DNA of 64,000 bases from an uncultured delta proteobacterium (GTDB lineage Bacteria > Desulfobacterota > Desulfobacteria > Desulfobacterales > B30-G6). The DNA is taken from positions 96,001 to 160,000 of the forward strand of contig CAWGLD010000006.1 of NCBI GenBank assembly GCA_963823335.1, given 5' to 3'. Every line of letters starts with the position of its first letter. Position 1 is the first letter of the stretch. The position numbers and the translations under genes were made by a program. Under the pieces are notes generated by a model. It did not search any database. It worked only from the letters and a program-made list of their open reading frames with translations, and was not told where the DNA came from. Of the stretch, positions 1,595 through 30,786 are shown in pieces.

Positions 1595-1600
1595 GATACA

Positions 1601-1676
1601 TCCGAAGCACGAAATTCGAAATACGAAACAATACTCAATGTTTGGATTTGTTTCGTATTTCGATATTCGAATTTAG
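1601..1676. repeat. 7-bp-period inverted tandem array (GCACGAA/ATTCGAA/ATACGAA ... TTCGTAT/TTCGATA/TTCGAAT)
   Basis: Heptamer units followed by their reverse complements; same unit family at ~61390-61541. Confidence 0.8.
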
Positions 1677-1698
1677 AGTTTTCTTTCGGCCGTACGTT

Positions 1699-8187: not shown

Positions 8188-9954
8188 TCAGGTTTCCAGT
8201 GATGTTTGATCATCGCTCATGGAAGCGCGCAGTCTCCGGGTAGCATCTTGATCGGCTCTGAGAGACCCTGTGTCGATTACCACGCCATAATCGCTTTTAG
8301 CCTTTTCAACACTTACATATCCATATCTGACATCTCTTTCCACCGCAGGGATATCTCTTTCCAACGGGGCACCGAAACCACCTCCTCCGGCGCTCTGAAA
8401 ATCAATGGTGTCACCCGGGTCGCAAAGCGTCAGGCCACTGGGGTCTCCGGGATGATCGTTTTTCAGAAAGCGGGCCTTGGAGCCGTTTTTCCCGCCGAAT
8501 ATCCCCCTAGGCGGGTATCGAAAACGACCAGCCTGAACGGCAATGGCTACCGGTGGCTCTGGTGCAAGAGCATCATCCGGAACACGGACGCGCATGCGGC
8601 GGCCCAAACCACCCCTCTGCTTTCCGGCACCGCCTGAATCACAGATGAGTTCCCGTGCAAGCACCATCAGAGGTGTGTCGCTTTCCAGGATTTCAACCGG
8701 TGTGTTGGCACCATTGGCGGGGAAAATGGCACACTGGTGTCCATCTTTGGCCCGGCTCGCCCCCAGACCACCGCCGCGAATAATCATGGTGTGAAATGGT
8801 TTCCCGTCATGCCGTTTTCCATAAAATATATTGGTTTGGGCCGGTGTCCCGCCGCTGTCCGCAATTATCCGGTCCGGGACGGCAATGGAAAGCGCCCTGA
8901 AAACCATTTCGGTCATAAAATGACCTACCTGCATGCGTGCGGCAACGGCAGCCGGGAACCGGCAGTTAACAACGCTGCCCTCGGGTGCCGTCATGGTTAC
9001 CGGGCGAATGGCGCCTTCATTTATAGGAAGATCCGGGTCGAAGACACTTTTGATGGCCATAAAAACATAGGCATAGGTGAAGTTATAGACAACATTGACC
9101 CCCCAGTTGACCTGGGGAGATGTGTTTGAAAAATCAACCTGAATGTCACTCCCATTTACCGCAACTGTCAGACAGATATGAATGTCATCACGTTTTCCCG
9201 CCCCCTCGATGACGCCCTCGTAGGGGTATACACCATCGGGAATACGATCGATCGCCTGCCGCATACTCTGCTCGGTTCTCTGAATGATTTCATCGGCGAG
9301 TCCTTCGAGGTTATCGAGACCTTCATCCGCCAGCATTTCAATAATTTTTTCACCGCAGACATGATTTGCCGCAACCTGTGAGCGGATGTCGCCGGTAACC
9401 TCCTCGGGTGTTCGAACATTCCAGCGAATCATCTCGAGGACATCCTTATTCAGTACACCCGCATCGTACAGTTTGACACGGGGAATAAAAAGACCTTCTT
9501 CAAACACCTCACGATTATCAGACGATACCCGTCCGCCGATATCCGAGTGATGAAACACACACGCCGTAAAGGCCACCGGTCGTTTCTTGTAGAAGATGGG
9601 GCTCAGGACGCAGACATCGTTCAGATGGCCTGCCAGTAACCACGGGTCGTTTACGATGATCACGTCACCGGGGTGATATTCACTCAAGGGCAGTGCTTGA
9701 ATCACTTTTTTTACACCCAGCGCCATGGCACCGGCTTGTCCCGGCGTACAAAACGTGCCCTGAACCAGTTCTTGGCCCCTGTGATCTGTAAACATGCATG
9801 TGTAATCATGGGCATCACGCAGCAGGCTCGAAAAGGCTGTTCTGGCAACCGATGCATCGGCTTCATCCACGATGGATATGAGACGACGCCAGAGAATTTC
9901 GAGACGAATGGGATCGAATATCGATTTGATTGGGTGGCTTGATTCAGGTGACAT
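8188..9954 (-). CDS. Hydantoinase B/oxoprolinase subunit (candidate 2-oxoindoleacetate lactam hydrolase subunit)
   Basis: NDPW..GHLND, HHSDIGG, NTPVE, DSGGAG..RGGLG and GGGGFG motifs. Confidence 0.9.
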   Translation of the reverse strand: MSPESSHPIKSIFDPIRLEILWRRLISIVDEADASVARTAFSSLLRDAHDYTCMFTDHRGQELVQGTFCTPGQAGAMALGVKKVIQALPLSEYHPGDVIIVNDPWLLAGHLNDVCVLSPIFYKKRPVAFTACVFHHSDIGGRVSSDNREVFEEGLFIPRVKLYDAGVLNKDVLEMIRWNVRTPEEVTGDIRSQVAANHVCGEKIIEMLADEGLDNLEGLADEIIQRTEQSMRQAIDRIPDGVYPYEGVIEGAGKRDDIHICLTVAVNGSDIQVDFSNTSPQVNWGVNVVYNFTYAYVFMAIKSVFDPDLPINEGAIRPVTMTAPEGSVVNCRFPAAVAARMQVGHFMTEMVFRALSIAVPDRIIADSGGTPAQTNIFYGKRHDGKPFHTMIIRGGGLGASRAKDGHQCAIFPANGANTPVEILESDTPLMVLARELICDSGGAGKQRGGLGRRMRVRVPDDALAPEPPVAIAVQAGRFRYPPRGIFGGKNGSKARFLKNDHPGDPSGLTLCDPGDTIDFQSAGGGGFGAPLERDIPAVERDVRYGYVSVEKAKSDYGVVIDTGSLRADQDATRRLRASMSDDQTSLET

Positions 9955-10079: not shown

Positions 10080-12164
10080 CTATAAATCTATCCACACAAA
10101 CCCATACGAATCCACCGTGCAGGCGGCATCTTCACCGATCACGATGGTGGATTCTCTCTCTTCTATAATTGCCGGTCCCTGAATAGCAGCACCTTGAAAG
10201 AGTTTCATCCGATCATACACCTCGTGAGGCAAAAACATCTTTCGCGTCAATGAAAATGCAGGGCGTGTTCCCTTCAGTGCATCTGTCAGCTGTCCTGTCT
10301 GCTTATCAAACCTGGGAAGTTGAAACGGTCTTTCCGGCTCACTGATCCGGACCTTGAATGTTACAAACTCGATCTGTGTTTCCGGATACGTTCGGCCATA
10401 GAGTTTCTCATAAGCCTGGTCGAAAAGATGACGAATATCAGAAATTTCCCACTCATAGAAAGGTTTGTTTTTCACGCTGAGATCAGTTTCGGCACCCTGA
10501 CCAATGAATCGCATCATAAGGGTTCTCTCAATACGCAAGGAATCGTCATCGATGGATTTTTGCAAAATAGCGGCACCCTCGGTCTCCAGGGTTTGGAAAA
10601 GATTCTCGATATAATCAAAATCGGCTTCGTCAAGTCTTACCCGATGACTCCTGGTCAGATCAAATGCCACCGGCGCTGTAAAAAATCCCAGAGCGGATCC
10701 AACACCTGCCAATGGGGGTACGAGTATTCTGGGTGCGTTGATCTTTTTTGCAAGCCCGTAGGCATGAACAGGCCCGGCGCCGCCGAAGGCCGAAATGGTG
10801 ACGATATTGGGGTTGCCGCCTTTTTCTGCAATGTGTGTTTTTGCTGCTGCGGCCATGGTTTCATTGATAAGGTCGTGGATGCCGAATGCGGCCTCCACCA
10901 GTGTGGTGCCCAGTGGTTTTGCAATTGTTTCCAGGATGGCATTTTCGGCAGCAGATTTGTCCAGTTTCATGCTGCCTCCCAGAAAATACTCCGGGTCCAG
11001 ATATCCCAGCACCAGGTCTGCATCGGTAACGGTCGGGTTGGTCCCTCCCTTACCATAGCAGACAGGGCCGGGGTCTGCGCCGGCGCTCTCCGGTCCCACC
11101 TGAAGCAGACCCATGCCACTTATCTTTGCCATGCTGCCACCGCCGGCACCGATTTCCATCAGATCGACAACCGGAACCTGAATGGGCAGTCCGCTGCCTT
11201 TTTTGAATCGCTGCACCCTTCCCACCTCAAAAGTGGAAACCATGCCTGCCTGCCCTTTTTGTATCAGACACGATTTAGCGGTGGTACCACCCATGTCAAA
11301 ACAGAACATGTCCTTGATCTGAAACAGGCCGCCATAGTGCTGGGATGCGATCACGGCAGCCGTAGGGCCAGATTCTATAATACGTACCGGATATTTACTG
11401 GCGGTTTCGATGGAGGTAATTCCGCCGCTGGATAGCATGATGAAAAGTTTTCCATTAAATCCTAGGGAGTTCAGTCTTGAAGAAAGTTTTTCAAGGTACT
11501 TGGATGTTATGGGCTTAACATATGCGTTCGTGACGGTTGTGCAGGTTCTTTCATATTCACGAATTTGGGGCAGAACCTCGAATGAAGTGGATAGTGAAAG
11601 TCCTGGTGCGAGCTTTTCTATCTCGGCTTTAACTGCTTTTTCGTGAATCGGGTTTTCAAAGGAATTGAGAAGACACACCGCCAAAGACTCGATCTGCATT
11701 TCCTGTAGTTCCTGCAGGACCGCAGCGATATCCTCTACCTGAATCGGCAGCAGGACTCTGCCGTCGCTGGCCACACGTTCGGCGATTTCCTTTCTGAGAA
11801 ACCGGGGAACCAGGGGCTCAGGATATTCCGCAAAAATATCATAGGCATCATAGCGAAGTTCTCTACCAAGTTCCAGCACATCTCTGAAACCCTGGGTGGT
11901 TATGAGGCCGGTCCTGGCACCTTTTCTTTCGATGATGGCATTGATAACCAGGGTGGTCCCATGAATAAATTCATCCGTAGAGGCCATAAATTCAGGGGCA
12001 TTGATTTCGAGCTGGCCAACGCCCTCTGCAACGGCGGTGGATGGATCCGAGGGGGTTGTCAAACACTTGTGCGTCTGGAATTCACCGGTCTGGTCATTCA
12101 CCAGTACAAAATCCGTAAATGTGCCGCCGATATCACAGCCCAAACGAAAGGCATTTTTCTTCAC
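10080..12164 (-). CDS. Hydantoinase A/oxoprolinase ATP-binding subunit
   Basis: DIGGTFTD, HGTT, ESGP, DMGGTT, IGAGGGS, SAGADPGP and FGGAGP motifs. GTG at 12164 follows GGAG; alternative TTG start at 12176. Confidence 0.92.
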   Translation of the reverse strand: MKKNAFRLGCDIGGTFTDFVLVNDQTGEFQTHKCLTTPSDPSTAVAEGVGQLEINAPEFMASTDEFIHGTTLVINAIIERKGARTGLITTQGFRDVLELGRELRYDAYDIFAEYPEPLVPRFLRKEIAERVASDGRVLLPIQVEDIAAVLQELQEMQIESLAVCLLNSFENPIHEKAVKAEIEKLAPGLSLSTSFEVLPQIREYERTCTTVTNAYVKPITSKYLEKLSSRLNSLGFNGKLFIMLSSGGITSIETASKYPVRIIESGPTAAVIASQHYGGLFQIKDMFCFDMGGTTAKSCLIQKGQAGMVSTFEVGRVQRFKKGSGLPIQVPVVDLMEIGAGGGSMAKISGMGLLQVGPESAGADPGPVCYGKGGTNPTVTDADLVLGYLDPEYFLGGSMKLDKSAAENAILETIAKPLGTTLVEAAFGIHDLINETMAAAAKTHIAEKGGNPNIVTISAFGGAGPVHAYGLAKKINAPRILVPPLAGVGSALGFFTAPVAFDLTRSHRVRLDEADFDYIENLFQTLETEGAAILQKSIDDDSLRIERTLMMRFIGQGAETDLSVKNKPFYEWEISDIRHLFDQAYEKLYGRTYPETQIEFVTFKVRISEPERPFQLPRFDKQTGQLTDALKGTRPAFSLTRKMFLPHEVYDRMKLFQGAAIQGPAIIEERESTIVIGEDAACTVDSYGFVWIDL

Positions 12165-12336
12165 GTCATTCTCCAATTATTTTTTGCACCAAACGATTAG
12201 GACATAATTCATGAAACACGCATGTGACGCAATAACGCTGGGATGCCTGGAGGCCTGGAGGCTGGGAAGCTGCTAACAGGCGATAACTCTCAGCCCCCTC
12301 CAACCCTTGTATCACCCTCGGACCCTTGTACCCTCT

Positions 12337-13971
12337 CTAGAAGATGCCCGGCTCTTGCCACTCCCCAAAAATATCACGAAGAACGGCAGTCATCTCCCCG
12401 ACAGTGGCATATTCACGGCAGCAGTCCACCAGCAAGGGCATGACATTGTCCCCCTTTCTGGTTCCCTTGTCGAGTTCTTTTAAGGTGCGGTTCACTGCCT
12501 GGTTGTTACGAGAGCCCTTTAAATCCTGTAGACTTTTGATCTGTTTTTCAACCCAGGCTTCGTTATGCTCGTGAAGTTCCACATCAGGGCCGGTTTCGTC
12601 AACGTCGGTGTATTTATTTAAACCGATCTTGATATATTCCCCACTTTGCAGTCCTTTTTCATATTCATAAGCCTGCTGGGCCACTTTTCTCTGTATATAA
12701 CCGGATGAAACTGCAGCAATCATACCACCGACGTGCTGGATAGCTGTCCTTTCCTCCTGAACTTTGTCTTCCATCTGCTTGGTGAGCGTTTCGATAAAAT
12801 AGGATCCCGCCAAGGGGTCCACAGTGTCCCTCAGACCGACTTCATCCATGATGATTTCAAGCGTTCTGAGAGAAAGCAGAGCTGCACGAGGTGTGGGGAT
12901 GGTGTATGCTTCATCAAAGGAGCACAGCGCGGTTGTCTGGGCGCCACTGAGTGCGGCACCGAGAGCATAGAAGGCACTTCTCATGATGTTGTTTTCCGGT
13001 TGCTCTTTTGTCAGACCGCTGCCACCGCCACCAAAAAGGCCCCGTAAAAAGAGTTTCTTTTTATCCTGAATACCGTATTCATCCCTCAACATCCGGGCCC
13101 AAAGCTTTCTGGCTGACCTGAATTTGGCTATTTGCTCCCACAGGTTTCCAAAGACATTCAGGTTGAAGGAAAAACGCCCCACAAAATCTCCTACATCTAT
13201 ACCTCGCGCCGCTACATTGTCTATGTAGGATTTTGCAATTTCAAAAGCACAGGCGATTTCCTGTGAGGGTGTCGCACCTGATTCCCGGATGTGATAGCCG
13301 CAGACACTCACCGGATTGCACCTGGGCAGCGCTTTCATGCTGTATTCAATACTGTCGCCAACCAGCCTAACGGCATGTTCAACAGGAAATATCCAGGCCC
13401 CGCGACCAATCATCTCCTTCAGGATATCGTTCTGGGGGGTGGCGCTGATACGGTCTATGGCATAACCGGTTTTTTCTGCAAGAGCCTGATACATGGCCAG
13501 CGTGATACATGCAATGGCGTTGATGGTGAGCCCAGTACCAATCCGATCGAGGGGGATACCGTCAAAGGCGATTTCAAAATCCCGCAGAGAATCGACAGCC
13601 ATACCAACGCGACCGACCTCTCCGGCAGCAAGTGGACTGTCGGAGTCCAATCCCATCTGTGTCGGAAGATCAAAGGCGACATTCAGCCCGGTCTGGCCGT
13701 GTGAAATCATATATTTAAATCGTTTGTTGGTCTCTTCCGGTGTTCCAAAACCGGTATACTGGCGTGTCGTCCAGGCCCGACTGCGATAACCCTGGGGGTG
13801 CAGACTCCGGGTGAACGGGTATTCCCCGGGATCACCCAGGTCCTTTTGATAATCGAAACCTACCGCCGTAAGATCATCCGGTGTGTACACAGGTTTGACT
13901 TTGATACCCGATTGATATTCAACCTCTGTGATGGCCCCTTTTTCATCTTTGATATATTTGGCAACACCCAT
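12337..13971 (-). CDS. Coenzyme B12-dependent acyl-CoA mutase, substrate-binding large subunit (candidate (2-aminophenyl)succinyl-CoA mutase)
   Basis: PGEYPFTR, WTTRQYTGF, AFDLPTQMG, QNDILKE, GYHIRESG and DPLAGSY motifs. Confidence 0.9.
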   Translation of the reverse strand: MGVAKYIKDEKGAITEVEYQSGIKVKPVYTPDDLTAVGFDYQKDLGDPGEYPFTRSLHPQGYRSRAWTTRQYTGFGTPEETNKRFKYMISHGQTGLNVAFDLPTQMGLDSDSPLAAGEVGRVGMAVDSLRDFEIAFDGIPLDRIGTGLTINAIACITLAMYQALAEKTGYAIDRISATPQNDILKEMIGRGAWIFPVEHAVRLVGDSIEYSMKALPRCNPVSVCGYHIRESGATPSQEIACAFEIAKSYIDNVAARGIDVGDFVGRFSFNLNVFGNLWEQIAKFRSARKLWARMLRDEYGIQDKKKLFLRGLFGGGGSGLTKEQPENNIMRSAFYALGAALSGAQTTALCSFDEAYTIPTPRAALLSLRTLEIIMDEVGLRDTVDPLAGSYFIETLTKQMEDKVQEERTAIQHVGGMIAAVSSGYIQRKVAQQAYEYEKGLQSGEYIKIGLNKYTDVDETGPDVELHEHNEAWVEKQIKSLQDLKGSRNNQAVNRTLKELDKGTRKGDNVMPLLVDCCREYATVGEMTAVLRDIFGEWQEPGIF

Positions 13972-14104: not shown

Positions 14105-14503
14105 TCATTTATTGCTGATTTCTTTTATTCCTTCAATCATAACGTCAAAAAGGGTTCCACCTGGATAGACGCCTTTGATGCCCATTTGCTCAAGTTTCAC
14201 GATGTCGCGTGCAGGTATGACACCGCCTACCACAACCCCGGTGGACTCAATGCCTTCCTGTGTCATCATCGCGAGAAGCTTTTCACAGATGCTAAGGTGA
14301 GCACCAGACATGATACTGAGCCCAATGATGTCAACGGCTTCCTGAACAGCTGTTCTTACAATCTGCTCAACCGGTTGATGAAGCCCGGTGTATACCACCT
14401 CCATGCCCGCGTCCCGAAGTGCCAGTGCAACAATCTTTGCGCCTCTGTCATGACCATCCAATCCAGGTTTTGCAATGAGTATTTTTATTTTTTTATCGCG
14501 CAT
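14105..14503 (-). CDS. B12-binding small subunit of acyl-CoA mutase
   Basis: KPGLDGHDRG (base-off/His-on) and GGVIP motifs. Confidence 0.95.
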   Translation of the reverse strand: MRDKKIKILIAKPGLDGHDRGAKIVALALRDAGMEVVYTGLHQPVEQIVRTAVQEAVDIIGLSIMSGAHLSICEKLLAMMTQEGIESTGVVVGGVIPARDIVKLEQMGIKGVYPGGTLFDVMIEGIKEISNK

Positions 14504-14722: not shown

Positions 14723-15421
14723 CTAGCTCAACTCGTCATACGATTCCATTACCGCTTTCTTCCCACGGGCCAAATGCTCCCGGACAAGATTTTCAACACC
14801 GTCCGCATCTCGCTGTCTGATGCGGTCGAGCATATCTTTATGATCCTCATTGCTCATTTTCGCCAGTTTCTCATTTCTCAGTATCAGCTGTCGAAATCGA
14901 TAGATCTGATCGCGCAGATTATTGATCATATGGATCAGCTTCGGGCTTCTGCTCAAGGCATACAATAGATCGTGAAAATCTGTGTTGATGTCGGGAAGCG
15001 CGTCGAGATCTTTATTATCCAAATGTTTCTGATATATCTTGATCTTTTTCTCAAGAGGTTTAAGGTCTGTCGGACGATGCTTTTCGGCAGCTAATCGTGC
15101 TGCATAGCTTTCCAGAACGCTTCGAATACCGAATGTTTCTTCTACGTCCTCCCGGCTGAGCCCCAGCACATTGAAGCCACCCCGGGGAAGTTTTCGTAAA
15201 TAGCCTTCTCTTTCCAGTTTGTGGATAGCTTCTCTGACCGGTGTCCGGCTGATGCCGAGCGTTTCTGCCAAACGACTTTCGATGAGCCTTCCGCCCGGTG
15301 GCACATCACCTTTGATGATCGCGTTTTTCAGATTCTCGAACACATGCTGTCCGAGTGATTTTCGTTGACCGATTTTATCGAGTTCTTCCAATCCTGTGCC
15401 GCTGTCTTTTTGGGAACCCAT
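14723..15421 (-). CDS. GntR/FadR-family transcriptional regulator (FCD domain)
   Basis: N-terminal wHTH LAETLGISRTPVREA; C-terminal FCD motifs (NTDFH, EDHKDM, EHL). Confidence 0.93.
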   Translation of the reverse strand: MGSQKDSGTGLEELDKIGQRKSLGQHVFENLKNAIIKGDVPPGGRLIESRLAETLGISRTPVREAIHKLEREGYLRKLPRGGFNVLGLSREDVEETFGIRSVLESYAARLAAEKHRPTDLKPLEKKIKIYQKHLDNKDLDALPDINTDFHDLLYALSRSPKLIHMINNLRDQIYRFRQLILRNEKLAKMSNEDHKDMLDRIRQRDADGVENLVREHLARGKKAVMESYDELS

Positions 15422-15470: not shown

Positions 15471-16661
15471 CTATATGACGCCTCTGCTTTTCAGAGCTTC
15501 GAGAGTTGCTGGATCATACCCCAGTTTCTGACCATAAATTTCATTGTTATGCTCACCAAAGCGGGGTGGAAACGTAAGCTGGCCCCCGCTGTTTTTTATA
15601 AATGAAGTCATGATGGGTGGTGGTGACAACGTAATTTGTTGGGAAGTGATGGGATCTTTGGCGAAGAGCAATTGTTTCTTGACCAATGGGTCTTGAATGA
15701 CATCCGTGATGGACTTGATCTTGCTGACAGGGACCGTTATGGACTGTAAGAGTTCGATAAGATCCTCGGAGGTCATTTCTTGGGTGATGGCATTCATGGC
15801 CTTATTCAAATTTGTAACATCCTGTATTCTACCGGAATTTTTCTCGTATTCTGGTTTGTCAAGGGATTTGAACATTGATTGCTTCACCAGCGTCTTCCAC
15901 TGTCGATCATTTCCGACCGCCATATAAATAAAGCCGTTTTGGGTTTTATAAACCGAAACAGGACAAAAAAATTCATGGGTGTTGCCTCTACGGGTAATTT
16001 TTTTTCCAAAACTGGACGTCAGGGTAATGGGAACCGTTAACCATGAAACAGAAGATTCGAACATGGACAAATCAATACGGCTCCCCTCTCCTGTGAATTG
16101 CTTTTTTAAAAGTGCTTTCATGAGGAGTCCGTAAGCATGTTCGCTGGTTCCCATGTCCGGCAGAGGTATGCCAAGCACCTGCGGATCACCATCCGCTGTC
16201 CCTGTGAGGTCCATCAGTCCTGATCTTGCCTGTAAAATCGGATCATAGGCACCCTCGTTGCTGTCCGGTCCGAATCCGGTGACACCCAGCCAGATGATGT
16301 CTTCCTTGACACTTTTGAGCCGATCGAAATCGATACCCAGTTTCTGATAGTTTTTTGGCAATTGATTGGTGATAAAGATATCGACGTTCAACGCATGAAT
16401 CAACCGATCAAAAATATCCCGTCCATCAGGATCGGCAAGATTCAGAGTTAAAGCCTTCTTTCCGGCATTGATACAAAGGTAATAGGCATTCATACGGTTC
16501 TCACTTAACACATTATCCCCGATCATCCTGTTAGGGTCTCCATAAACAGGGTGCTCCAGACGGATAATATTCATGCCGTCCTGGGCGAGTCGATAGGTAA
16601 GATACGGAACTACCGTGGCCTGTTCCAAGGATAACACCGTTATGGTTTTTAAAAAATCCAT
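15471..16661 (-). CDS. Family III (CaiB/BaiF) CoA-transferase (IaaL-like)
   Basis: NAGKKALTLNL, GFGPD, AYDPILQARSGLM motifs, active-site Asp in PLPDMG, and PPRFGEHN. Confidence 0.9.
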   Translation of the reverse strand: MDFLKTITVLSLEQATVVPYLTYRLAQDGMNIIRLEHPVYGDPNRMIGDNVLSENRMNAYYLCINAGKKALTLNLADPDGRDIFDRLIHALNVDIFITNQLPKNYQKLGIDFDRLKSVKEDIIWLGVTGFGPDSNEGAYDPILQARSGLMDLTGTADGDPQVLGIPLPDMGTSEHAYGLLMKALLKKQFTGEGSRIDLSMFESSVSWLTVPITLTSSFGKKITRRGNTHEFFCPVSVYKTQNGFIYMAVGNDRQWKTLVKQSMFKSLDKPEYEKNSGRIQDVTNLNKAMNAITQEMTSEDLIELLQSITVPVSKIKSITDVIQDPLVKKQLLFAKDPITSQQITLSPPPIMTSFIKNSGGQLTFPPRFGEHNNEIYGQKLGYDPATLEALKSRGVI

Positions 16662-16744
16662 ATGTCTCTCCTTGATATGAAAATAGAATGTAGTGTAATT
16701 AGAGATTGCCTGTCAGTGGTGGGGCTTTCGCTGCTCAGTATAAT

Positions 16745-16761
16745 TTGTATACTGTATACAA
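16745..16761. promoter_or_regulatory. Putative GntR operator TTGTATAC-T-GTATACAA
   Basis: Perfect 8-1-8 palindrome in the divergent promoter, overlapping a minus-strand TTGACA-N18-TATACA; the core recurs at 25897-25911. Confidence 0.75.
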
Positions 16762-16943
16762 GAAACTATTGTCAAGAATTGTTTGTGATGATATGAATGC
16801 TTTCTTGTATTGACTTTAAATTTAAGTGTACAGTAGGTGAGATTGAAGATTCCTTACAGCAAGCCACGGGGAATGCGCTCGCTGTTTCGGTTCACTGTTC
16901 GGTTCAGTAAATTTATCATCTCAAACGCAAGGAGGTTCATGTA

Positions 16944-17156
16944 ATGGCTGATGTTAATGCTCCCATGCCCGGAAAAATCTGCGAAGTAAAAGTCAGTCCT
17001 GGGGATACCGTTATAGAAGATCAGGAAGTTTTGGTTCTCGAAGCAATGAAAATGGAAATGCCGATTGTCGCAACGGCCGCCGGCACGGTTAAATCCGTCA
17101 ACTGTAGTGAAGGGGATGCGGTACAGGGTGGCGATGTCCTTATGGTCATTGATTGA
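16944..17156 (+). CDS. Stand-alone biotin carboxyl carrier protein
   Basis: 70 aa with APMPGKI and EAMKME biotinylation motif; AAGGAGG RBS. Confidence 0.93.
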   Translation: MADVNAPMPGKICEVKVSPGDTVIEDQEVLVLEAMKMEMPIVATAAGTVKSVNCSEGDAVQGGDVLMVID

Positions 17157-17218
17157 TTTCGTGACAGGCATTTTTTTCCGGTTATACGAGTTGGGGTTTA
17201 TAGCGAAAGGGGGCCGGC

Positions 17219-18781
17219 ATGTCCGACCAGACCACACATAAAAGTGAGCTGAAACGCCTAGCGGCTCTCACGGAAAGGGCTGAACTGGGGGGCGGTGTTA
17301 AAACTATCGATAAACGTCATGCCCAGGGAAAGCTTACTGCCAGAGAACGCCTGACTCTTTTATTCGACCCTCATTCATTCGTGGAAATGAATCAACTTGC
17401 CGAGAGCCAGGCCGTTGATTTCGGCATGCAGGAAAAAAAGGTTCCCGGCGACGGTGTCGTCATCGGCTATGGTAACATTGATGAGCGGCTCGTTTTTGCC
17501 TATGCCCAGGATGCCACGGTGCTGGGAGGATCGGTTGGAACCGTTCACGGCCAGAAAATATGCCGTATCATGGATGAAGCTTTGAAGGTCAAGGCACCCA
17601 TCGTGGGGCTTTTCGATTCCGGAGGCGGCAGAATCCATGAGGGCTTTTTCGCATCCAAGGGTGTGGCCGGTATGTTTTACCGCAATACAGCGGCATCAGG
17701 TGTCATCCCCCAGATCTCTGCCATGATGGGACCCTGTGCCGGCGTATCGGTCTACTCCCCTGCCCTGACAGACTTCATTATCATGGTGGAGGGTACCAGC
17801 CAGATGGCCATTACCGGTCCGGGAGTGATAAAATCCGTTACCGGTGAGGATGTGACCCTGGAAGAGCTGGGTGGCGCAAAGGTGCACAGCGAAATAACCG
17901 GCCAGGCTCATCTTGTTGTCAATACCGACCAAGACTGCATTCAGTCAATTCGCAATCTCCTGGCCTATCTCCCCTCAAACAATGAAGCATCTCCACCCCT
18001 TGTAGAATCGAATGAAGACCCCTTTCGCTCGGATCCATCTTTGGAAGATATTGTTCCTGCAGATTTCAGAAAGGCATACGATATGCGAAAGGTCATTACA
18101 CGCGTGGTGGACCAGGAGACCTTCCACGAACTGCTTCCCAGATATGCAAAAAGCATCATCATCGGATTTGCGCGAATGGATGGGCAGACCATCGGCATTG
18201 TCGCTAACCAGCCTATTTATCTTGCAGGATGTCTGGATGTCAACAGCTCGGACAAGGCCGCCAGATTCATTCGATTCTGTGATGCCTTCAATATCCCCTT
18301 GATCAACCTTGTGGATGTGCCCGGATATTTTCCAGGTGTCAAACAGGAGTACGCCGGTATCATCCGGCATGGCGCCAAAATGCTGTATGCCTATGCCGAG
18401 GCAACCGTTCCCAAAATCACCCTGGCCTTGAGAAAGGAATACGGAGGCGCCGTCATGGCCATGTGCTGCGTAGGAATGGGTGTGGACCAGATGCTGGCCT
18501 GGCCGATTGCCAAACTGGTTGTCCTGGACACCACTACGGCCGTGAACCTGATCTTTCGAAAAGAAATCCAATCTGCCGAGGATCCTGACGAATTCAGACA
18601 GCGCATGATCAAGGCCTATGACCAGAAGTATTCAAATCCTTTTCATGCGGCTTCCAACATGCTCGTGGATGCGATCATCGAACCAAGCCAGACACGACCT
18701 GAGCTAATCAAAGCCCTGCGAATGCTTAAAACAAAAAAACGTCCCGGACCTTTCAGACGACATGGGAATATACCACTATGA
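17219..18781 (+). CDS. Acyl-CoA carboxyltransferase/decarboxylase subunit (PccB/MmdA family)
   Basis: GKLTARER, GDGVV, DSGGGRI, GPCAG, LEELGGA, DVPGY and HGNIPL motifs. Confidence 0.92.
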   Translation: MSDQTTHKSELKRLAALTERAELGGGVKTIDKRHAQGKLTARERLTLLFDPHSFVEMNQLAESQAVDFGMQEKKVPGDGVVIGYGNIDERLVFAYAQDATVLGGSVGTVHGQKICRIMDEALKVKAPIVGLFDSGGGRIHEGFFASKGVAGMFYRNTAASGVIPQISAMMGPCAGVSVYSPALTDFIIMVEGTSQMAITGPGVIKSVTGEDVTLEELGGAKVHSEITGQAHLVVNTDQDCIQSIRNLLAYLPSNNEASPPLVESNEDPFRSDPSLEDIVPADFRKAYDMRKVITRVVDQETFHELLPRYAKSIIIGFARMDGQTIGIVANQPIYLAGCLDVNSSDKAARFIRFCDAFNIPLINLVDVPGYFPGVKQEYAGIIRHGAKMLYAYAEATVPKITLALRKEYGGAVMAMCCVGMGVDQMLAWPIAKLVVLDTTTAVNLIFRKEIQSAEDPDEFRQRMIKAYDQKYSNPFHAASNMLVDAIIEPSQTRPELIKALRMLKTKKRPGPFRRHGNIPL

Positions 18782-18967
18782 TATTGATCGGCTCCTTTGG
18801 GGCAAATCAATATTAAAGGTTCAAGGGGCCAAGGATTCGAGGGTTCGAGGGTGGCTGAGGGCGATCAGCTGACAGCAGCATCCTCGCCTCCCAGCATACA
18901 AGGGATCAAGATACTGATTTTACTCGTATGTCTATGAAAAAAAACCAATCGAAACAGGGAGAATATC

Positions 18968-20116
18968 ATGGACTTTACCCTCTCCAAGGAACATAAGGAT
19001 ATCCAGAAAGCAGCCAGAGAATTTGCCGTGGGTGAATTTACCCATGTGGCACGTGAATTCGATTTGAATGAAACCTTTCCGCAAAAGATCCTGGACAAAG
19101 CCCGTAAGCTGGATCTTATCGGTCTGTTCATCCCGGAGGCATACGGCGGACCGGGTCTGGGTTTCCTGGAGCATGCATTGGTGCTGGAAGAATTCTGGAA
19201 AATTGATCCTGGTATCGGTCAGCAGCTCTGTTCAGTTTCGTTTGGTGCCGAAGAGCTGCTCCTGTTTGGTACAGAAGAACAGAAAAAAACATTTCTCAAT
19301 CCGATTTTCAGCGGCAAGGCCATTATGGGATTTGCCATTACCGAACCGGATGCCGGGAGCGACACGGCCGCTGTTGCAACAACCGCTGTAAGAGACGGTG
19401 ACGACTATATTATCAACGGCAGCAAGATCATGATCGGTAATGGCACGGTGGGAACATTTATGCTGGTATTTTGTCTGACCAATCCGGATGAGAAATCAAA
19501 GACAGCCCGGCACAGCGTTATCATTGTCGAAACCGATCGACAGGGGTATAAAGCCGATAAAATGGACGGCAAGATGGGACTCAGATGTTCTGACACAGCC
19601 GCTGTCTACTTCAACAATGTGCGGGTACCCAAAGAAAATCTGCTGGGTAGGGAAGGCCATGGCTTTATCCAACTGATGCATTTCTTCGATCGCTCCAGAG
19701 CCTACGTGGCCGCCCACGGCCTTGGCTTGGCACAGGGCGCCTTGGATCAGGCCGTCAAACACGTCAGAGGCAGAAAACAGTTCGGGCGCCCTTTGGGTGC
19801 TTTCCAGGCGACCCAGTTCAAGATTGCCGAAATGGCAACCAAGATCGAAGCCGCCAGGAACATGGTCTACAAATCCGCCTGGCTTCTGGACAACGGCATG
19901 GCTGATACCAAACTCACCGCCATGGCCAAACTGTATGCCTGTCATGTGGCTGTGACGGTTGTTGACGAAGCTCTTCAATTGCACGGCGGATACGGGTATT
20001 TCAACGATTATGACATCGAACGATTCTACCGGGCCGCCAAGGTACTCGAAATATATGAAGGCACCAAAGAGGTTGAAAAGATAATTATTTCTCGGGAAAT
20101 TTTGGGGAAATTATAG
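18968..20116 (+). CDS. Acyl-CoA dehydrogenase
   Basis: FAITEPDAGSD, RKQFG, LQLHGGYGY and IYEGT motifs. Confidence 0.94.
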   Translation: MDFTLSKEHKDIQKAAREFAVGEFTHVAREFDLNETFPQKILDKARKLDLIGLFIPEAYGGPGLGFLEHALVLEEFWKIDPGIGQQLCSVSFGAEELLLFGTEEQKKTFLNPIFSGKAIMGFAITEPDAGSDTAAVATTAVRDGDDYIINGSKIMIGNGTVGTFMLVFCLTNPDEKSKTARHSVIIVETDRQGYKADKMDGKMGLRCSDTAAVYFNNVRVPKENLLGREGHGFIQLMHFFDRSRAYVAAHGLGLAQGALDQAVKHVRGRKQFGRPLGAFQATQFKIAEMATKIEAARNMVYKSAWLLDNGMADTKLTAMAKLYACHVAVTVVDEALQLHGGYGYFNDYDIERFYRAAKVLEIYEGTKEVEKIIISREILGKL

Positions 20117-20366
20117 ATCTCCGTAGCTTATGGCGGGGCACGCGTCAATTGAAGGACCTCGCAGCAAGCTGCGAAGATGGATGATTCTATTGTTTATCAC
20201 TTCGTTTTTATCCTGAGTTACAGATAAATTTCTTTAGGGTCGACGGTGTCACGAAAATTGCTCTCAAAAAACATCATTTTCTGATGTTTTTTTTTGATTA
20301 AATCGTCAATTATGGAATTGAAATATATCATAGGTTATATTCATTATTAATATAGTACAGCATGTT

Positions 20367-20599: not shown

Positions 20600-21556
20600 A
20601 TGATAAAGAAATACTGGTTTTTTATAGGTATCGCCTGTGTGATCGGCATCGCCTTTATGCTGCCCCACGTGGGGAGCTTTGTACGGACCTACAAAATTCT
20701 AAACATCGGCATTTTTATAGCCTTCCTGCTGACAGGCCTGTCTTTGGAGACGTCCAGTTTTTTTGAGCAGCTGAAAAATATCAAGGTCCTGCTGGCAGCC
20801 CTTATTTCGTCACTGATCTTTTTTCCGGTGGCGGCCTACTACTTGGGGCAGTACGTCTTCAGCGGCTGGCCGGATTTTGCCCTTGGGACACTGATCATCG
20901 GTGTCGCACCGGTGACGGTTGCCTCTGGAACGGTGATGACGGCCATCGCCCTGGGAAATGTTCCGCTGAGTCTGTTTATCTGTGTTCTGGGGAACTTCTT
21001 TTCCATTGTAACCATTCCCATCATGGTCAACTTGCTGTTGCACATGGGGGATGTGTCCATAGAACTTCCGGCTTTACAAATGCTGATGGGATTGACACTC
21101 AAAGTGCTGGTGCCAATAGTGATCGGCCAGCTTTTAAGGCCACGGTTGAAATCGAAGATACTACCGTTTTCCAAAGCTATTTCAATTTTTAACCAGAGCA
21201 TCGTACTCATGATCATTCTCAATGCAGTGTCGAGTTCGAGCCACCGGATTCTCGAGGCAGGGCCGGCCCTGTTTCTGGTTTTTCTTTTTATGATCGGGCT
21301 GCATATTTTTATTGTCCTTGTCAACAAAACAACTGCTGGGCTTATCGGGCTGGATTTGCCTTCTACCGCAGCCTTCACCATTCACACCTCTCAAAAAACC
21401 TTGACCATTTCATATCTGGTTTGGGCCGGTTATTTTGCCGATGCATACCCAATGGCCCTCATTCCAGGCATCGCCTATCATCTTACCCAGATGATTATGG
21501 ACACTTTTGTGGCGCAATGGTTCAGGAACCGTGTGGAAACATCGGCCGTTGGTTAG
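20600..21556 (+). CDS. Bile acid:sodium symporter (BASS/SBF-like) family transporter
   Basis: Multi-TM protein with PVTVASG..MT...GN, SQKTL and YHLTQM motifs. Confidence 0.85.
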   Translation: MIKKYWFFIGIACVIGIAFMLPHVGSFVRTYKILNIGIFIAFLLTGLSLETSSFFEQLKNIKVLLAALISSLIFFPVAAYYLGQYVFSGWPDFALGTLIIGVAPVTVASGTVMTAIALGNVPLSLFICVLGNFFSIVTIPIMVNLLLHMGDVSIELPALQMLMGLTLKVLVPIVIGQLLRPRLKSKILPFSKAISIFNQSIVLMIILNAVSSSSHRILEAGPALFLVFLFMIGLHIFIVLVNKTTAGLIGLDLPSTAAFTIHTSQKTLTISYLVWAGYFADAYPMALIPGIAYHLTQMIMDTFVAQWFRNRVETSAVG

Positions 21557-25787: not shown

Positions 25788-25896
25788 TGTCTCCTCCTTC
25801 CTGATAGGTATTTAAATGGTTTGATGGATTGCGCTACAGGGTAAGATTTGGTGTAACACGCTGAAAAAGATTCATTTTTTAACTTGACTTCAAACA

Positions 25897-25911
25897 TGTA
25901 TACAGTATACA
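25897..25911. promoter_or_regulatory. Putative GntR operator TGTATAC-A-GTATACA
   Basis: Same palindrome as 16746-16760, flanked by TTGACT hexamers on both strands (25884 +, 25923 -). Confidence 0.75.
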
Positions 25912-25976
25912 GATTTTAGTCAAGAGAATAATGATACGTATCCAATTTTTTAACATAAATAAAGAAGGAAATCTCC

Positions 25977-27998
25977 ATGAAATCACGCATTGAACTGTAC
26001 CCCACCGCCCACAACCCTCTCTTGATCAAACCGGATCGTGGATTGCCCACCGCCGCTGCCGTTATTGGGGCCGGTACCATTGGTCCCGATATTGGCTATT
26101 TTCTAAAAAGCGCCCTGCCAAATATGCCCCTTACCCTTGTGGATGTCGATGACAAACCCCTAAAGGCGGCAGAAAAACGATTGGCCGCTTATGCGGCAAA
26201 GGCTGTCGAGCGAAGAAAAATGCGACCGGAACAGGCAAAAACCGTTTTGAAAGACATCCGCTACACCACGGATTACCAGCAGCTCAAAAATTGTGATCTG
26301 GTCATCGAAGCGGCAACGGAAAACATACCTTTGAAACAGAAAATCTTTGCTCAAGTTGAAAATATTGTCAGTCAAGACACCATCATTACATCCAACACCA
26401 GCTCCATCCCGGCCGACCGTTTATTCATGAAAATGAAACACCCGGAACGAACCTCGGTCACCCATTTTTTTGCGCCTGCATGGCGGAGTCTTCCCGTGGA
26501 AGTTATCTCATGGCCTGGCGCCTCTCAGAAAACCATTGATTATCTTTTCTGGTTTCTGGCAAAAACCGGCAAAGCACCCATCGTGACGGACAATGCCATC
26601 TGTTTTGTCCTGGATCGTATTTTCGACAACTGGTGCAATGAATCCGCGTTCCTCCTGAGCCAGGCGACGGCCAGTCAAATTGACAGGGTGGCCGAAGAAT
26701 TTGTTTTTGCCGGCCCTTTTTTTGTACTGAACATGGCCAACGGCAATCCCATTATTATTGAAACAAATACTCTGCAGATGGAGGAAGGAGATCATTACAA
26801 ACCAGCACCGATACTTCATTCCGTCGATCGCTGGGCAACCCATCGTCCCGGTAGCGGGCCTGAGATCCCTGAAAATCTTCACACCGCCATTCGAGATCGA
26901 CTGCTGGGCATTCTGTTTTCTCAGTCATTTGATATTATCGACAGGGGCATCGGCACTCTGGCAGATCTCAATTTCGGTTGCCAGATTGCCCTGGGATTTA
27001 AAGAAGGCCCCCTTGATGTTATGAAACGGCTGGGAAAGACCGAAGTACATCGCATTATGACACGTTTTCAAGAAGACCGCCCAGGATTTCCTGAGGCTGC
27101 CCAGCCATTTGAAACCTATCAATCGTTTCATCGATACATTCTGACGGACGACATGGACGGTGTAAAGATTATCACCATCCGTCGTCCCCAGGCAATGAAT
27201 GCCCTCAATGACGATGTAACCGAAGAAATATGCCAGGTGCTGGCATCCAGCGAAAAGGACCCTGCCGTAAAAGGGTTTGTCATTACAGGGTTCGGTAGCA
27301 ACGCTTTCTCAGCGGGTGCCGACATCGGCAAGTTTCCGACCATGCTGGGAGATAAGGATGCATCTATGCAGTATGCCAGGGATTGCGCTAAAGTCCAGTG
27401 CTACATGGATCAAATGAACAAACCCGTGGTCGCAGCCCTCAATGGCTTGGCCATGGGAGGTGGACTGGAGGTCGCCATTCGGTGTCATGGTATTGTTTCG
27501 GTTGAAAAGGCAGTTCTGCAATTTCCGGAAATCACGTTGGGTATTCTGCCCGGTATTGGCGGTTGTGTGGTGCCTTACCGTAAGTGGCCCCAGGGGGCAG
27601 CGCTCTTTCATGAAATGATTCTGTTTGGAAAGCCGGTCCCGGCGACAACAGCCGCTGAGATGGGAATCATCAATGGTCTTGTCAAGGATCCGGCGGATCT
27701 GATAGCTGCGGCTATCAAAGAGGTTCAGCGGCTCCAAAACAACATACCGAGAATCAGTAACGCCGCCGTTGACATCCCTGAGATATCGATTCCGGAATCG
27801 CCTGCTGCCGGCAAACAGCTCCTGAGTAAGGAAGCCGTTTCCATTACCGCTGATACCATTCGAAAGGCATCGGCTGCCGACGATCTCGAAACAGCACTGG
27901 AGATAGGGTATGAGGGTTTCGGCGATATCGCCTGCTCTGCTGCCGCCAAAGAAGGAATATCCGCATTTCTACAAAAACGAAAACCGAACTTCAAATAA
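25977..27998 (+). CDS. 3-hydroxyacyl-CoA dehydrogenase / enoyl-CoA hydratase fusion (IaaP-like)
   Basis: GAGTIG, IEAATE, SNTSS and HFFAP (HAD domain); FSAGADI, GGGLE and PEITLGILPG (crotonase domain). Confidence 0.92.
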   Translation: MKSRIELYPTAHNPLLIKPDRGLPTAAAVIGAGTIGPDIGYFLKSALPNMPLTLVDVDDKPLKAAEKRLAAYAAKAVERRKMRPEQAKTVLKDIRYTTDYQQLKNCDLVIEAATENIPLKQKIFAQVENIVSQDTIITSNTSSIPADRLFMKMKHPERTSVTHFFAPAWRSLPVEVISWPGASQKTIDYLFWFLAKTGKAPIVTDNAICFVLDRIFDNWCNESAFLLSQATASQIDRVAEEFVFAGPFFVLNMANGNPIIIETNTLQMEEGDHYKPAPILHSVDRWATHRPGSGPEIPENLHTAIRDRLLGILFSQSFDIIDRGIGTLADLNFGCQIALGFKEGPLDVMKRLGKTEVHRIMTRFQEDRPGFPEAAQPFETYQSFHRYILTDDMDGVKIITIRRPQAMNALNDDVTEEICQVLASSEKDPAVKGFVITGFGSNAFSAGADIGKFPTMLGDKDASMQYARDCAKVQCYMDQMNKPVVAALNGLAMGGGLEVAIRCHGIVSVEKAVLQFPEITLGILPGIGGCVVPYRKWPQGAALFHEMILFGKPVPATTAAEMGIINGLVKDPADLIAAAIKEVQRLQNNIPRISNAAVDIPEISIPESPAAGKQLLSKEAVSITADTIRKASAADDLETALEIGYEGFGDIACSAAAKEGISAFLQKRKPNFK

Positions 27999-30216: not shown

Positions 30217-30786
30217 ATGCCTACCATAAATTTTGTACTCAGCGGCCTGGGTGGCCAGGGCATCCTGTTTATGACCAAAATCATTGCCAATACGGCATTG
30301 CGTAAAGGCTACAATGTCATGGGAGCGGAAACACATGGCATGGCACAGCGAGGAGGCTCTGTCATTTCTCACCTCAGGTTAGGCAATGTCAACAGCAGCC
30401 TTGTCAAAACTGGTTCAGCACAGTTCCTGCTGGCTCTTGAAGAAAATGAAGCCTACCGCAATCTTCCCTTTCTTGCAAAAAACGGACACCTATACAGCGA
30501 CACGGTTTCAGGCGATTTTCCTATGCCGAAGGTCAAACCCTATCTTGATAAAATGGGTATACGATACGATGCCCTGCCGGCCGGCAAAATCGCTCTTGAA
30601 TTAGGTGCGCCTGTGTCCTCCAATCTGGCCATGATTGGCTTTTTTGCCGCATTTCAGGAGGGACCTTTTGCAGCGGATGATTTTCAAGAGACCATCGAGA
30701 GCATCAGTCCGGGACGATTCAAGGATATCAACTTGCGGGTTTTTGAAAAAGGTCTTTCTGCAGGTAATACGGCTAGAGCATTATGA
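30217..30786 (+). CDS. iorB: Indolepyruvate:ferredoxin oxidoreductase beta subunit
   Basis: GLGGQG and ETHGMAQRGGSV motifs. Confidence 0.93.
   Translation: MPTINFVLSGLGGQGILFMTKIIANTALRKGYNVMGAETHGMAQRGGSVISHLRLGNVNSSLVKTGSAQFLLALEENEAYRNLPFLAKNGHLYSDTVSGDFPMPKVKPYLDKMGIRYDALPAGKIALELGAPVSSNLAMIGFFAAFQEGPFAADDFQETIESISPGRFKDINLRVFEKGLSAGNTARAL

Follow-up and report, generated by a model that had tools for sequence, protein, structure and literature searches.

A putative two-step, biotin-dependent replacement of IaaF in an anaerobic indoleacetate gene cluster of an uncultured delta proteobacterium

In the pathway of anaerobic indoleacetate (iaa) degradation described for Aromatoleum aromaticum (PMC8360864), (2-aminobenzyl)malonyl-CoA is converted into 2-aminocinnamoyl-CoA and CO2, an oxidative decarboxylation that is ascribed there to a single enzyme, the benzylmalonyl-CoA dehydrogenase IaaF. 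We have analyzed a DNA stretch of 64,000 nt (here called the window; G000:C6:96001-160000 in our labels for genome, contig and positions) from an uncultured delta proteobacterium of the sulfate-reducer type, whose assembly comprises 4.37 Mb and is 93.9% complete. The window carries a variant of the iaa pathway, which is probably fed by tryptophan via an indolepyruvate:ferredoxin oxidoreductase. It also contains genes for a biotin carrier, a carboxyltransferase (CT) and an acyl-CoA dehydrogenase (ACAD) (Table 1). Judged from the sequences, it is reasonably likely that the last two form a two-step replacement of IaaF, in which decarboxylation onto biotin would be followed by the oxidation of an arylpropionyl-CoA.

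When compared with the published iaa gene list (legend to Fig. 1 of PMC8360864), the window has in common with the IaaF route a CoA ligase, a family III CoA-transferase, a split B12-dependent mutase, a regulator and a transporter with its binding protein, all of them co-located. Unlike that route, it lacks an IaaF of the GGG type and encodes instead the carrier, the CT and an ACAD with a YEG motif, with decarboxylation and oxidation as separate reactions. As the earlier note on this DNA had described, the carrier, CT and ACAD genes are divergent from the mutase operon: the three open reading frames (ORFs) were found exactly at the positions given in Table 1, and the iaa-type genes of the minus strand run from 16661 on. 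Together, the CT and the Glu-bearing ACAD would give the same net reaction as IaaF.

The decarboxylation of malonyl-type thioesters releases approx. 25-30 kJ/mol, and the enzymes Mmd, Gcd and Oad use this energy for Na+ pumping. In the system of strict anaerobes that is composed of a non-decarboxylating glutaryl-CoA dehydrogenase and a Na+-pumping glutaconyl-CoA decarboxylase (Desulfococcus type, NF045552), an oxidative decarboxylation is split in two, as we propose for the window; however, dehydrogenation comes first in that system, whereas the window enzymes would first decarboxylate a malonyl-type thioester. The glutaryl-CoA system is present in the host, and its membrane beta/gamma pair could be shared with the window CT, which is only 21% identical to the GcdA-like CT of the host. 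The MmdABCDE complex resembles the proposal in that an alpha-substituted malonyl-CoA gives its CO2 to biotin, but the CT and the carrier of the window score below the mmdA and MmdC cut-offs, the beta and delta genes are unlinked and the pocket motifs are altered.

In alkane degradation, a mutase and then a carboxyl transferase have been proposed for (methylalkyl)malonyl-CoA (PMC6776118, PMC5606693). There, too, a B12 mutase makes a bulky substituted malonyl-CoA that is decarboxylated by a CT of the PCC/Mmd type, and this route may be taken as a precedent for the logic of the window. It differs in its aliphatic substrate and in its gene clusters and, as presented in these sources, is itself a genomic proposal only.

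The early steps in the window would proceed as published, i.e. by CoA activation, Mo-dependent hydroxylation, ATP-dependent opening of the lactam and CoA transfer, followed by the B12-dependent rearrangement to (2-aminobenzyl)malonyl-CoA. The CT would then move the free carboxyl group of this compound to the biotin of the 70-aa carrier, leaving 3-(2-aminophenyl)propionyl-CoA, which the ACAD, with its catalytic Glu, would convert to 2-aminocinnamoyl-CoA for further processing by the fused hydratase/dehydrogenase. Carboxybiotin would be discharged either by an orphan beta/gamma Na+-translocating pair, with conservation of energy, or by transfer to another acceptor. We infer the substrates of the CT and of the ACAD as well as the fate of the carboxyl group; since the CT substrate and the destination of the carboxyl group have this standing, the energy saving that the earlier note attributed to the biotin route would have to be read in the same conditional sense.

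The dehydrogenase and the IaaF clade

According to the description of IaaF orthologues in PMC8360864, these proteins have GGG where other ACADs have YEG, form a branch of their own ("BMal") and without exception have their genes in iaa operons. In the window ACAD the corresponding residues are IYEGT, and the protein has the four domains and the catalytic Glu of a conventional ACAD. Its best NCBIfam match is acryloyl-CoA reductase AcrC (404.8 bits, cut-off 640), and its nearest solved structures (1UKW, 4L1F, 5OL2 and 6FAH, the last being caffeyl-CoA reductase CarC) include dehydrogenases of the medium-chain acyl-CoA dehydrogenase (MCAD) type and butyryl-CoA dehydrogenases. The substrate of CarC is a phenylpropenoyl-CoA, and MCAD oxidizes 3-phenylpropionyl-CoA.

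IaaF-type sequences were gathered by searching for the window CoA-transferase in 401 sampled genomes of the phylum and by fetching 20 of the loci. A CoA-transferase homologue was present in 83 of the 401 genomes (G000 included) at 48-74% identity, with all but one match at 56% or above. The large subunit of the mutase was rejected as an iaa marker: its matches (142 of the 401 genomes at E <= 1e-150) mixed homologues of 63-78% identity with methylmalonyl-type proteins of approx. 45%, and the CoA-transferase was chosen because of this mixture. In the fetched loci, the mutase homologues of 63-78% identity co-locate with the CoA-transferase. Clusters of the iaa type are common in the phylum (loci L102-L121 were the ones fetched), and the marker is present even in genomes of 1.5-1.9 Mb.

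In 16 of the 20 loci, one or two ACADs with the motif RFLL(Y/F/S)GGGT (18 sequences in all) are encoded beside the CoA-transferase or mutase genes. A tree of 57 ACADs (IQ-TREE), which included 24 of the 30 homologues from the host genome (those of 340-470 aa), placed the 18 GGG proteins in one clade (support 98/97), with none of the 24 host homologues inside. The window ACAD fell outside this clade and into another (100/100), together with those ACADs whose genes come after a CT gene in related loci. A protein search yielded no link between the GGG clade and a characterized IaaF; the matches listed (at least 120) were all at least 76% identical and bore generic names.

Pairwise identity inside the GGG clade ranges from 38.7 to 91% (median 50%), and identity alone is therefore not decisive; the argument is carried by the tree and the motif. 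Compared with the host genome, the 18 GGG queries reached at most 40.1% identity, and one of these queries gave 38% when the genome was searched in six frames. No gene of the IaaF clade was found in the host by the protein search with 18 queries, the tree or the six-frame search. In five other genomes with a CT-type cluster (assemblies of unstated completeness), three queries, one per subclade, retrieved nothing above 40% identity. The seven best matches to the IaaF queries read in these genomes carry GEG (five), YEG (one) or a non-IaaF IGGGTSEIQ (one).

The GGG motif alone was discarded as a test for IaaF, because four ACADs of the host, encoded in Atu-like or other contexts, have GGG and lie outside the IaaF clade. 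Three of them form a separate clade, and the fourth (C1:384695) stands at the base of the tree without a resolved placement.

We propose from these sequence comparisons that the window ACAD is a 3-(2-aminophenyl)propionyl-CoA dehydrogenase. Motif, tree and genome searches agree with the earlier note in that this enzyme is not an orthologue of IaaF, which is defined here by its synteny as well as by GGG. They do not bear out the idea, implied by that note, that strict anaerobes in general split the iaa step, as a GGG ACAD is present in 16 of the 20 loci of the phylum, and the iaa operons of strict anaerobes presented in PMC8360864 carry iaaF together with a paralogue of the electron-transferring flavoprotein (ETF).

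Linkage of the gene pair with iaa genes

Among 297 relatives of the CT in species-representative genomes, we analyzed the best 80 (70-92% identity), nearly all of which are labelled Desulfobacterales or "delta proteobacterium"; the genus labels of related loci include Desulfobacula, Desulfotignum, Desulfosarcina and Desulfatibacillum. The ORFs of these loci were the output of a simple script and are non-curated gene models. Where at least 1.4 kb of sequence was available 3' of the CT gene (71 of the 80 loci), an ACAD of at least 70% identity followed directly on the same strand in 49 cases, was close by in 3 more and was not found in 19. All but one of the 53 CT-linked ACADs read YEG, the remaining one being truncated. 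At least one iaa core gene with at least 60% identity was present in 48 of the 80 loci, and three or more in 29.

In the closest relatives of the window, the CT-ACAD pair is divergent from the CoA-transferase gene, while in loci labelled Desulfobacula or Desulfotignum the order is collinear: CT, ACAD, IorA, IorB, CoA-transferase, GntR, MeaB, mutase and hydantoinase. In many related loci, the hydratase/dehydrogenase and IorA/IorB genes directly adjoin CT-ACAD. A linkage of the pair with iaa genes that outlasts such rearrangement argues for selection. A CT of the window subfamily was found in none of the 20 IaaF-type loci and in only five of the 401 sampled genomes, G000 included.

A palindrome is located in the divergent promoter region, and a second copy upstream of the hydratase/dehydrogenase gene (Table 1). 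With at most one mismatch, the core TGTATAC-N-GTATACA has only two sites in the 4.37-Mb genome, both in this cluster, and 0.14 sites would be expected by chance in the window. An equivalent of the second site is present in L023, L029, L049, L057 and L082. Among the ACAD-linked loci with enough flanking sequence, 44 of 49 have the palindrome within 800 nt upstream of the CT gene (24/24, 10/12 and 10/12 by context class). It was found in none of ten loci with hydantoinase genes only and in none of the L033-L037 type (described below). Of the 20 IaaF-type loci, 11 contain it; in 10 it is located upstream of the CoA-transferase gene, next to its first codon, and one locus has it upstream of the GGG ACAD as well.

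We regard the palindrome as the probable operator of the GntR/FCD regulator, and the simplest reading is that this protein controls both the CT-ACAD operon and the iaa genes, with which the pair appears to share a regulon. The synteny across many relatives, accompanied by the same palindrome, is in keeping with the earlier note's assignment of the pair to the iaa genes.

Several observations weigh against a clean replacement of IaaF. Some concern the material itself: all loci come from one phylum, so that related genomes are non-independent samples, and the GGG clade was called IaaF by the two criteria of PMC8360864, motif and synteny. Others concern the gene content. The carrier gene adjoins the CT gene in only 15 of the 80 related loci, all of them closest relatives, and no ETF genes are present in the window; the nearest ETF pair (C6:83518-85675) was rejected as that of the cluster, since it adjoins dimethylglycine-dehydrogenase-like and MttB genes and not iaa genes. 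The chemistry also raises a difficulty. Free 3-(2-aminophenyl)propionyl-CoA should cyclize readily to a six-membered lactam, an intermediate that the one-step reaction of IaaF avoids; with a saturated 2-amino intermediate, channelling might therefore be needed.

The remaining points come from loci of exceptional structure. In L110 (G396:C6, 1434-8913), an IaaF-type cluster with MeaB and two GGG ACADs in tandem is immediately preceded by genes for a different CT (31% identity) and a YEG ACAD (56%); between this pair and the cluster, the palindrome is matched three times, at overlapping positions 7 nt apart (4282-4310). In 11 loci, hydantoinase A, hydantoinase B and CT genes stand in a row, without a mutase or CoA-transferase gene within 10 kb, and in at least five of these the ACAD reads IYTGT, i.e. 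has no catalytic Glu. In at least six further loci (L033-L037 and L051), the CT gene (75-77% identity) is divergent from that of a GGG ACAD which is sister to the IaaF clade (98/96), with no iaa gene near. Two genomes of this last type, G312 and G360, have their iaa genes scattered over contigs, and no IaaF-like gene was seen in them besides that of the CT-linked GGG ACAD, from which it follows that this CT can coexist with a likely decarboxylating dehydrogenase.

The loci with a hydantoinase-CT row (L038-L041, L047, L050, L053, L056, L085 and L098 among them) may belong to another pathway for N-heterocycles, with an aryl-malonyl thioester as its product; in L038, the row is joined by genes for a MarR regulator, an AMP ligase, a Mo-hydroxylase and HdrA/GltD-like proteins. 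The neighbours of the CT/GGG-ACAD pair in L033-L037 and L051 are unrelated (glycogen phosphorylase, sigma-54 activator), and G312 has two copies of the pair (L136 and L137).

These exceptional loci, i.e. the CT genes that are divergent from a GGG ACAD, the 11 genes that directly follow hydantoinase A/B with no mutase near, and the union of a CT-ACAD pair with two IaaF-like genes in L110, would also fit an accessory function of the CT beside a decarboxylating dehydrogenase. The CT could then serve in the salvage or interconversion of aryl-malonyl-CoAs, in the carboxylation of arylpropionyl-CoA, or could act on a different aryl-malonyl thioester that arises directly from lactam hydrolysis. We give this explanation little credence for the window, as neither the host nor the five relatives were found to contain an IaaF-clade gene that the CT could assist, and an accessory carboxylating role would need a biotin carboxylase in trans because none is linked. 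Moreover, when a quick tree of the CTs was rooted with the housekeeping enzyme, most of it was taken up by iaa-linked genes, and genes from the other contexts fell into a single nested clade (21 rows, support 99), for which secondary recruitment is a better fit than an ancestral role; the window CT lies in a clade of 16 rows (support 99), to which the loci with a neighbouring carrier gene belong.

The claim of the earlier note that IaaF is replaced by the CT and the ACAD is upheld in part by the lack of a detected IaaF-clade gene in the host and in five relatives. It does not hold as a strict alternative of the one or the other, as the CT family with a GGG ACAD and L110 demonstrate. The exceptional loci show a tie of the CT subfamily to aryl-malonyl-type chemistry more broadly; they lower the confidence in a clean substitution everywhere and bear less on the genome of the window itself.

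Carboxyltransferase pocket and carboxyl fate

The CT was best matched by the family mmdA (TIGR01117), with 738.9 bits against a cut-off of 998.8. This test discriminates only weakly, because the housekeeping methylmalonyl-CoA CT of the host also falls below the cut-off (872.3 bits). The window CT is 52% identical to this enzyme and 21-42% identical to the other CTs of the host. Its best solved relatives are PCC-beta or Mmd-alpha-like (E 1e-165 to 1e-177).

The motifs AGVSVYSPA, YGGAVMAM and GVAG of the window CT depart from the canonical AGGAVYSPA, YGGAY(I/L/D)xM and GYG. Wherever the columns were covered, all 80 relatives read AGV(S/A)VYSPA and YGGAVM(A/G)M, with Val replacing a Gly of the oxyanion motif AGG and the Tyr beside the specificity residue. 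The housekeeping CT of the host has AGGAVYSPA and YGGSYLAM, and the five best solved relatives (1VRG, 1X0U, two entries of human PCCB, and PccB of Streptomyces coelicolor) keep AGGAVYSPA, Tyr or His before the specificity residue, and the Tyr of the GYG type.

The sites were located by counting along the PccB alignment (G182/G183, Y156, Y421 and position 422), the numbers in the MccB paper being one higher. In the account given by that paper (PMC5187497; PDB 5INF/5INI), the acyl pocket of MccB, the beta subunit of a medium-chain acyl-CoA carboxylase, is lined by Tyr157, Tyr187, Leu191 and Ala423 among others, and an Asp-to-Ala exchange at the specificity position lets PccB accept longer chains. 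The window CT has a small residue instead of the pocket Tyr, Met at the specificity position and Val in place of the Tyr before it, and it retains the Phe by which short-chain enzymes exclude long chains.

MccB is a PccB-like protein whose pocket has been reshaped by few substitutions for larger alpha-substituents, which may also hold for the window CT. In MccB, however, the pocket is enlarged by Phe161->Gly and Asp->Ala, whereas the window CT keeps the Phe and is altered in the pocket Tyr, the second Gly of AGG and the Tyr before the specificity residue. MccB also differs in working as a carboxylase with a biotin carboxylase partner. The changed residues of the window CT may make room for a benzyl group. 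This CT belongs to a distinct subfamily, other than the housekeeping enzyme, and we propose that it is a (2-aminobenzyl)malonyl-CoA:biotin carboxyltransferase.

The family matches would also suit an ordinary methylmalonyl-/propionyl-CoA CT which, with a short-chain ACAD of the acryloyl or butyryl type (AcrC being the best, though sub-threshold, NCBIfam match), handles side products derived from succinate or propionate, while the benzylmalonyl-CoA step is left to an unrecognized enzyme. A source of such products is conceivable, as the CoA-transferase described in PMC8360864 uses succinate/succinyl-CoA. Nevertheless, this explanation appears quite improbable. The host has a complete methylmalonyl-CoA module elsewhere, in which the housekeeping CT is encoded with a fused methylmalonyl-CoA mutase, MeaB, a 670-aa 5S-type subunit and succinyl-CoA synthetase; the window CT is distinct from it, in line with the earlier note, and the window mutase is only 36% identical to the fused mutase. 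The sub-cut-off mmdA score, the pocket motifs unlike those of five canonical enzymes and the cluster-specific palindrome of the pair speak in the same direction, and without the proposed reactions an essential decarboxylating step would be missing in all six genomes examined.

The carrier reads LEAMKMEMPI, with the lysine of the EAMKM motif as the site of biotinylation. It is matched best by the 70-aa BCCP model NF006079 (81.7 bits, cut-off 95) and reaches 45.5 bits with the MmdC model NF047903 (cut-off 200).

Among the 47 window ORFs scanned against Pfam (with families also checked by NCBIfam), we found no biotin carboxylase, OAD_beta or 5S gene. As the earlier note had it, neither a biotin carboxylase nor the beta subunit of a Na+ pump is encoded here: OAD_beta occurs only on C1 and Biotin_carb_C on C1 and C3, whereas the window is on C6. 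The only biotin carboxylase of the genome belongs to a cluster of the AtuA type, which has a CT and a carrier of its own, and the CT genes of the genome number seven, the window CT included.

The search of the whole genome for OadB/GcdB or a transcarboxylase 5S subunit, which the same note had proposed, revealed both an orphan beta/gamma pair and a fusion of 5S with a biotin carrier. The single OAD_beta gene (C1:966408-967535; 472 bits with TIGR01109, cut-off 190.6) follows a gene for a 142-aa OAD_gamma-like protein; the pair is unlinked to any CT and has no alpha subunit or carrier beside it, and must therefore be served in trans by some CT. The 670-aa 5S-type subunit, composed of HMGL-like, PYC_OADA and biotinyl domains, is encoded on C1 next to the housekeeping CT. 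Another CT, of 577 aa, adjoins an ACAD that passes NF045552 for non-decarboxylating glutaryl-CoA dehydrogenase (777 bits, cut-off 470), which indicates that the host already splits the glutaryl-CoA step.

An OAD_beta gene was also present in all five other CT-type genomes, and in three of them an adjoining OAD_gamma-like gene was found. These OAD_gamma-like proteins have a conserved C-terminal tail, DDPHPHL(T/S)I, which could be a docking site. The presence of the beta/gamma pair does not discriminate between the possible fates of the carboxyl group, because the pair is probably needed for glutaconyl-CoA decarboxylation anyway.

A further candidate head of a biotin-dependent decarboxylase is encoded at C8:94431-99718 (L013), where two tandem CTs (36-39% identity to the window CT), a 111-aa biotin carrier, an enoyl-CoA hydratase, an NMO-like protein and a GGG ACAD are found without a biotin carboxylase.

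If the two-step chemistry is granted, Na+ pumping and transcarboxylation are about equally probable. In the first case, the CT and the 70-aa carrier would be the head of a new Na+-translocating (amino)benzylmalonyl-CoA decarboxylase that docks in trans on the single orphan OadB/gamma module and shares it with the glutaconyl-CoA head and perhaps with the CT pair on C8; we put this forward tentatively, as a possibility with less than even chances.

The same chemistry may also proceed with no Na+ pumping, if carboxybiotin is passed on to pyruvate via the host 5S subunit, giving oxaloacetate, or to an acyl-CoA via another CT. Acceptor enzymes of this kind are available (the 5S-type subunit and six other CTs), the window carrier consists of no more than a biotinyl domain of 70 aa and lacks the longer N-terminal part of the carriers MmdC and GcdC, and a marker search of the 80 loci detected no CT-linked membrane subunit. 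The 5S subunit, on the other hand, has a fused carrier and an adjoining 12S-type CT of its own, the orphan beta/gamma pair has to be served by some CT, and OAD_beta genes (in three cases with an OAD_gamma-like neighbour) accompany the CT-type cluster in the other genomes. Transfer to these acceptors is in our estimate rather unlikely.

Gene environment and implications

Table 1. Features of the window discussed in the text
Feature	Position	Strand	Basis or remark
TRAP transporter DctM, DctQ, DctP	3..2724	-	Pfam
Mo-hydroxylase subunits FAD / FeS / Mo	5898-6779 / 5331-5879 / 2931-5255	-	Pfam/NCBIfam; recur in related loci
PaaK-like CoA ligase	6840..8132	-	Pfam/NCBIfam; recurs in related loci
Hydantoinase B	8188..9954	-	Pfam/NCBIfam; recurs in related loci
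Hydantoinase A	10080..12176	-	Pfam/NCBIfam; recurs in related loci
Mutase large subunit (IaaGH-like split mutase)	12337..13971	-	MM_CoA_mutase, 568.9 bits
B12-binding mutase small subunit (IaaGH-like split mutase)	14105..14503	-	B12-binding domain
GntR/FCD transcription regulator	14723..15421	-	GntR and FCD domains; kept between CoA-transferase and mutase in related loci
Family III CoA-transferase, IaaL-like	15471..16661	-	CoA_transf_3, 247 bits
Palindrome TTGTATAC-T-GTATACAA, CoA-transferase/carrier divergent promoter region	16745..16761		Putative operator of the GntR/FCD regulator
Biotin carrier, 70 aa, biotinyl domain only, free-standing	16944..17156	+	Pfam Biotin_lipoyl, E 8.9e-22; EAMKM motif
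Carboxyltransferase (CT), 520 aa, MmdA/PccB-like, distinct subfamily	17219..18781	+	Carboxyl_trans, 598.5 bits
Acyl-CoA dehydrogenase (ACAD), 382 aa, Bcd/MCAD/CarC-like	18968..20116	+	All four ACAD domains; IYEGT
SBF-like membrane protein (Na+/solute symporter family), 3' of ACAD, unit membership uncertain	20600..21556	+	SBF_like, 158.6 bits
Second palindrome copy, differing from the 17-mer at 2 positions; hydratase/dehydrogenase gene 65 nt further downstream	25896..25912		Window and genome scan
Fused 3-hydroxyacyl-CoA dehydrogenase/enoyl-CoA hydratase	25977..27998	+	Pfam
Indolepyruvate:ferredoxin oxidoreductase IorA	28032..29888	+	IOR_alpha TIGR03336, 658 bits (cut-off 650.9)
IorB	30217..30786	+	Pfam

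An SBF-like gene of 88-91% identity is located downstream in four of the 80 related loci (L022, L029, L030 and L082). The position of such an importer beside a Na+-pumping decarboxylase may be physiologically sensible if pumping takes place.

A consensus scan for promoters and terminators gave only weak matches, with no terminator between the three genes on the plus strand, and we base no conclusion on it. The Rfam scan of 14300-20700 gave no match at E <= 0.01.

Part of the region 12300-20200 was present in 16 metatranscriptome runs. The contigs of four runs (at least 95% likeness) touched 25 to 30 of 30 bins and both divergent gene sets, and one contig of 608 nt (16865-17472) covered the carrier gene with some sequence before it and part of the CT gene. 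Such contigs carry no strand, level or proof of a transcript, their depth does not rank genes and uncovered parts are meaningless; as DNA carry-over is possible in RNA libraries, they argue only weakly for expression. The contigs piled up 10- to 100-fold over non-coding DNA at 14412-14675 and 16788-17051, with many loose ends at 14554-14700 and 16859-16894. The first of these stretches lies between the inverted repeats 14557-14575 and 14684-14702. There was no match in Rfam, and a repeated element or small RNA that other organisms share is conceivable.

Other genes in and near the window were recorded. A second module for aromatic 2-oxoacids occupies 53313-63634; it comprises an Ior-like alpha subunit split in overlapping ORFs (53313-54758 and 54689-55336), a beta subunit, a PaaK-like ligase, a ketopantoate-reductase-like gene, a BcrAD/BadFG-type activator, the D component of a 2-hydroxyacyl-CoA dehydratase and an ADP-forming acyl-CoA synthetase. 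The minus strand at 37384-40473 contains a 1029-aa ORF in which APH-type phosphotransferase, M23 peptidase and class III aminotransferase domains are fused. Just outside the window, a homologue of the trimethylamine methyltransferase MttB (L020 16839-18356, minus strand; G000:C6:92839-94356) has a single in-frame TAG at L020 17373-17375, as would be expected for pyrrolysine. It adjoins a DeoR regulator, a CCG Fe-S protein, a dimethylglycine-dehydrogenase-like gene and an ETF pair.

The iaa pathway and the logic of a mutase followed by a CT are known; what appears to be new is the variant with a biotin-dependent CT and an ordinary ACAD at the decarboxylation step of iaa degradation. The words "carboxyltransferase" and "decarboxylase" do not occur in PMC8360864, where biotin is mentioned in the introduction only. 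The top-ranked literature matches did not combine "indoleacetate" with "carboxyltransferase", although the surveys of iaa clusters by Schuhle et al. (2016) and Ebenau-Jehle et al. (2012) may mention a CT.

If the proposed function is correct, an unusual pathway step would have been solved twice, by the flavoenzyme IaaF and by biotin-dependent carboxyl transfer with ordinary dehydrogenation, and aryl-substituted malonyl-CoA would join the short list of substrates of biotin-dependent decarboxylases. The motifs described here would provide a sequence signature for CTs that may take bulky alpha-substituents, which is relevant to unusual extender units of polyketides. The occurrence of the iaa marker in 83 of the 401 genomes of the phylum suggests that anaerobic turnover of indoleacetate in sediments may be widespread.

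For organisms that live near the thermodynamic limit, the degradation of tryptophan and auxin would then contain a possible energy-conserving step. If, in addition, the carboxyl group is used for Na+ pumping, one membrane pump would serve several exchangeable, substrate-specific heads, and the breakdown of these compounds would gain the fraction of an ATP per molecule that is discarded by the IaaF route.

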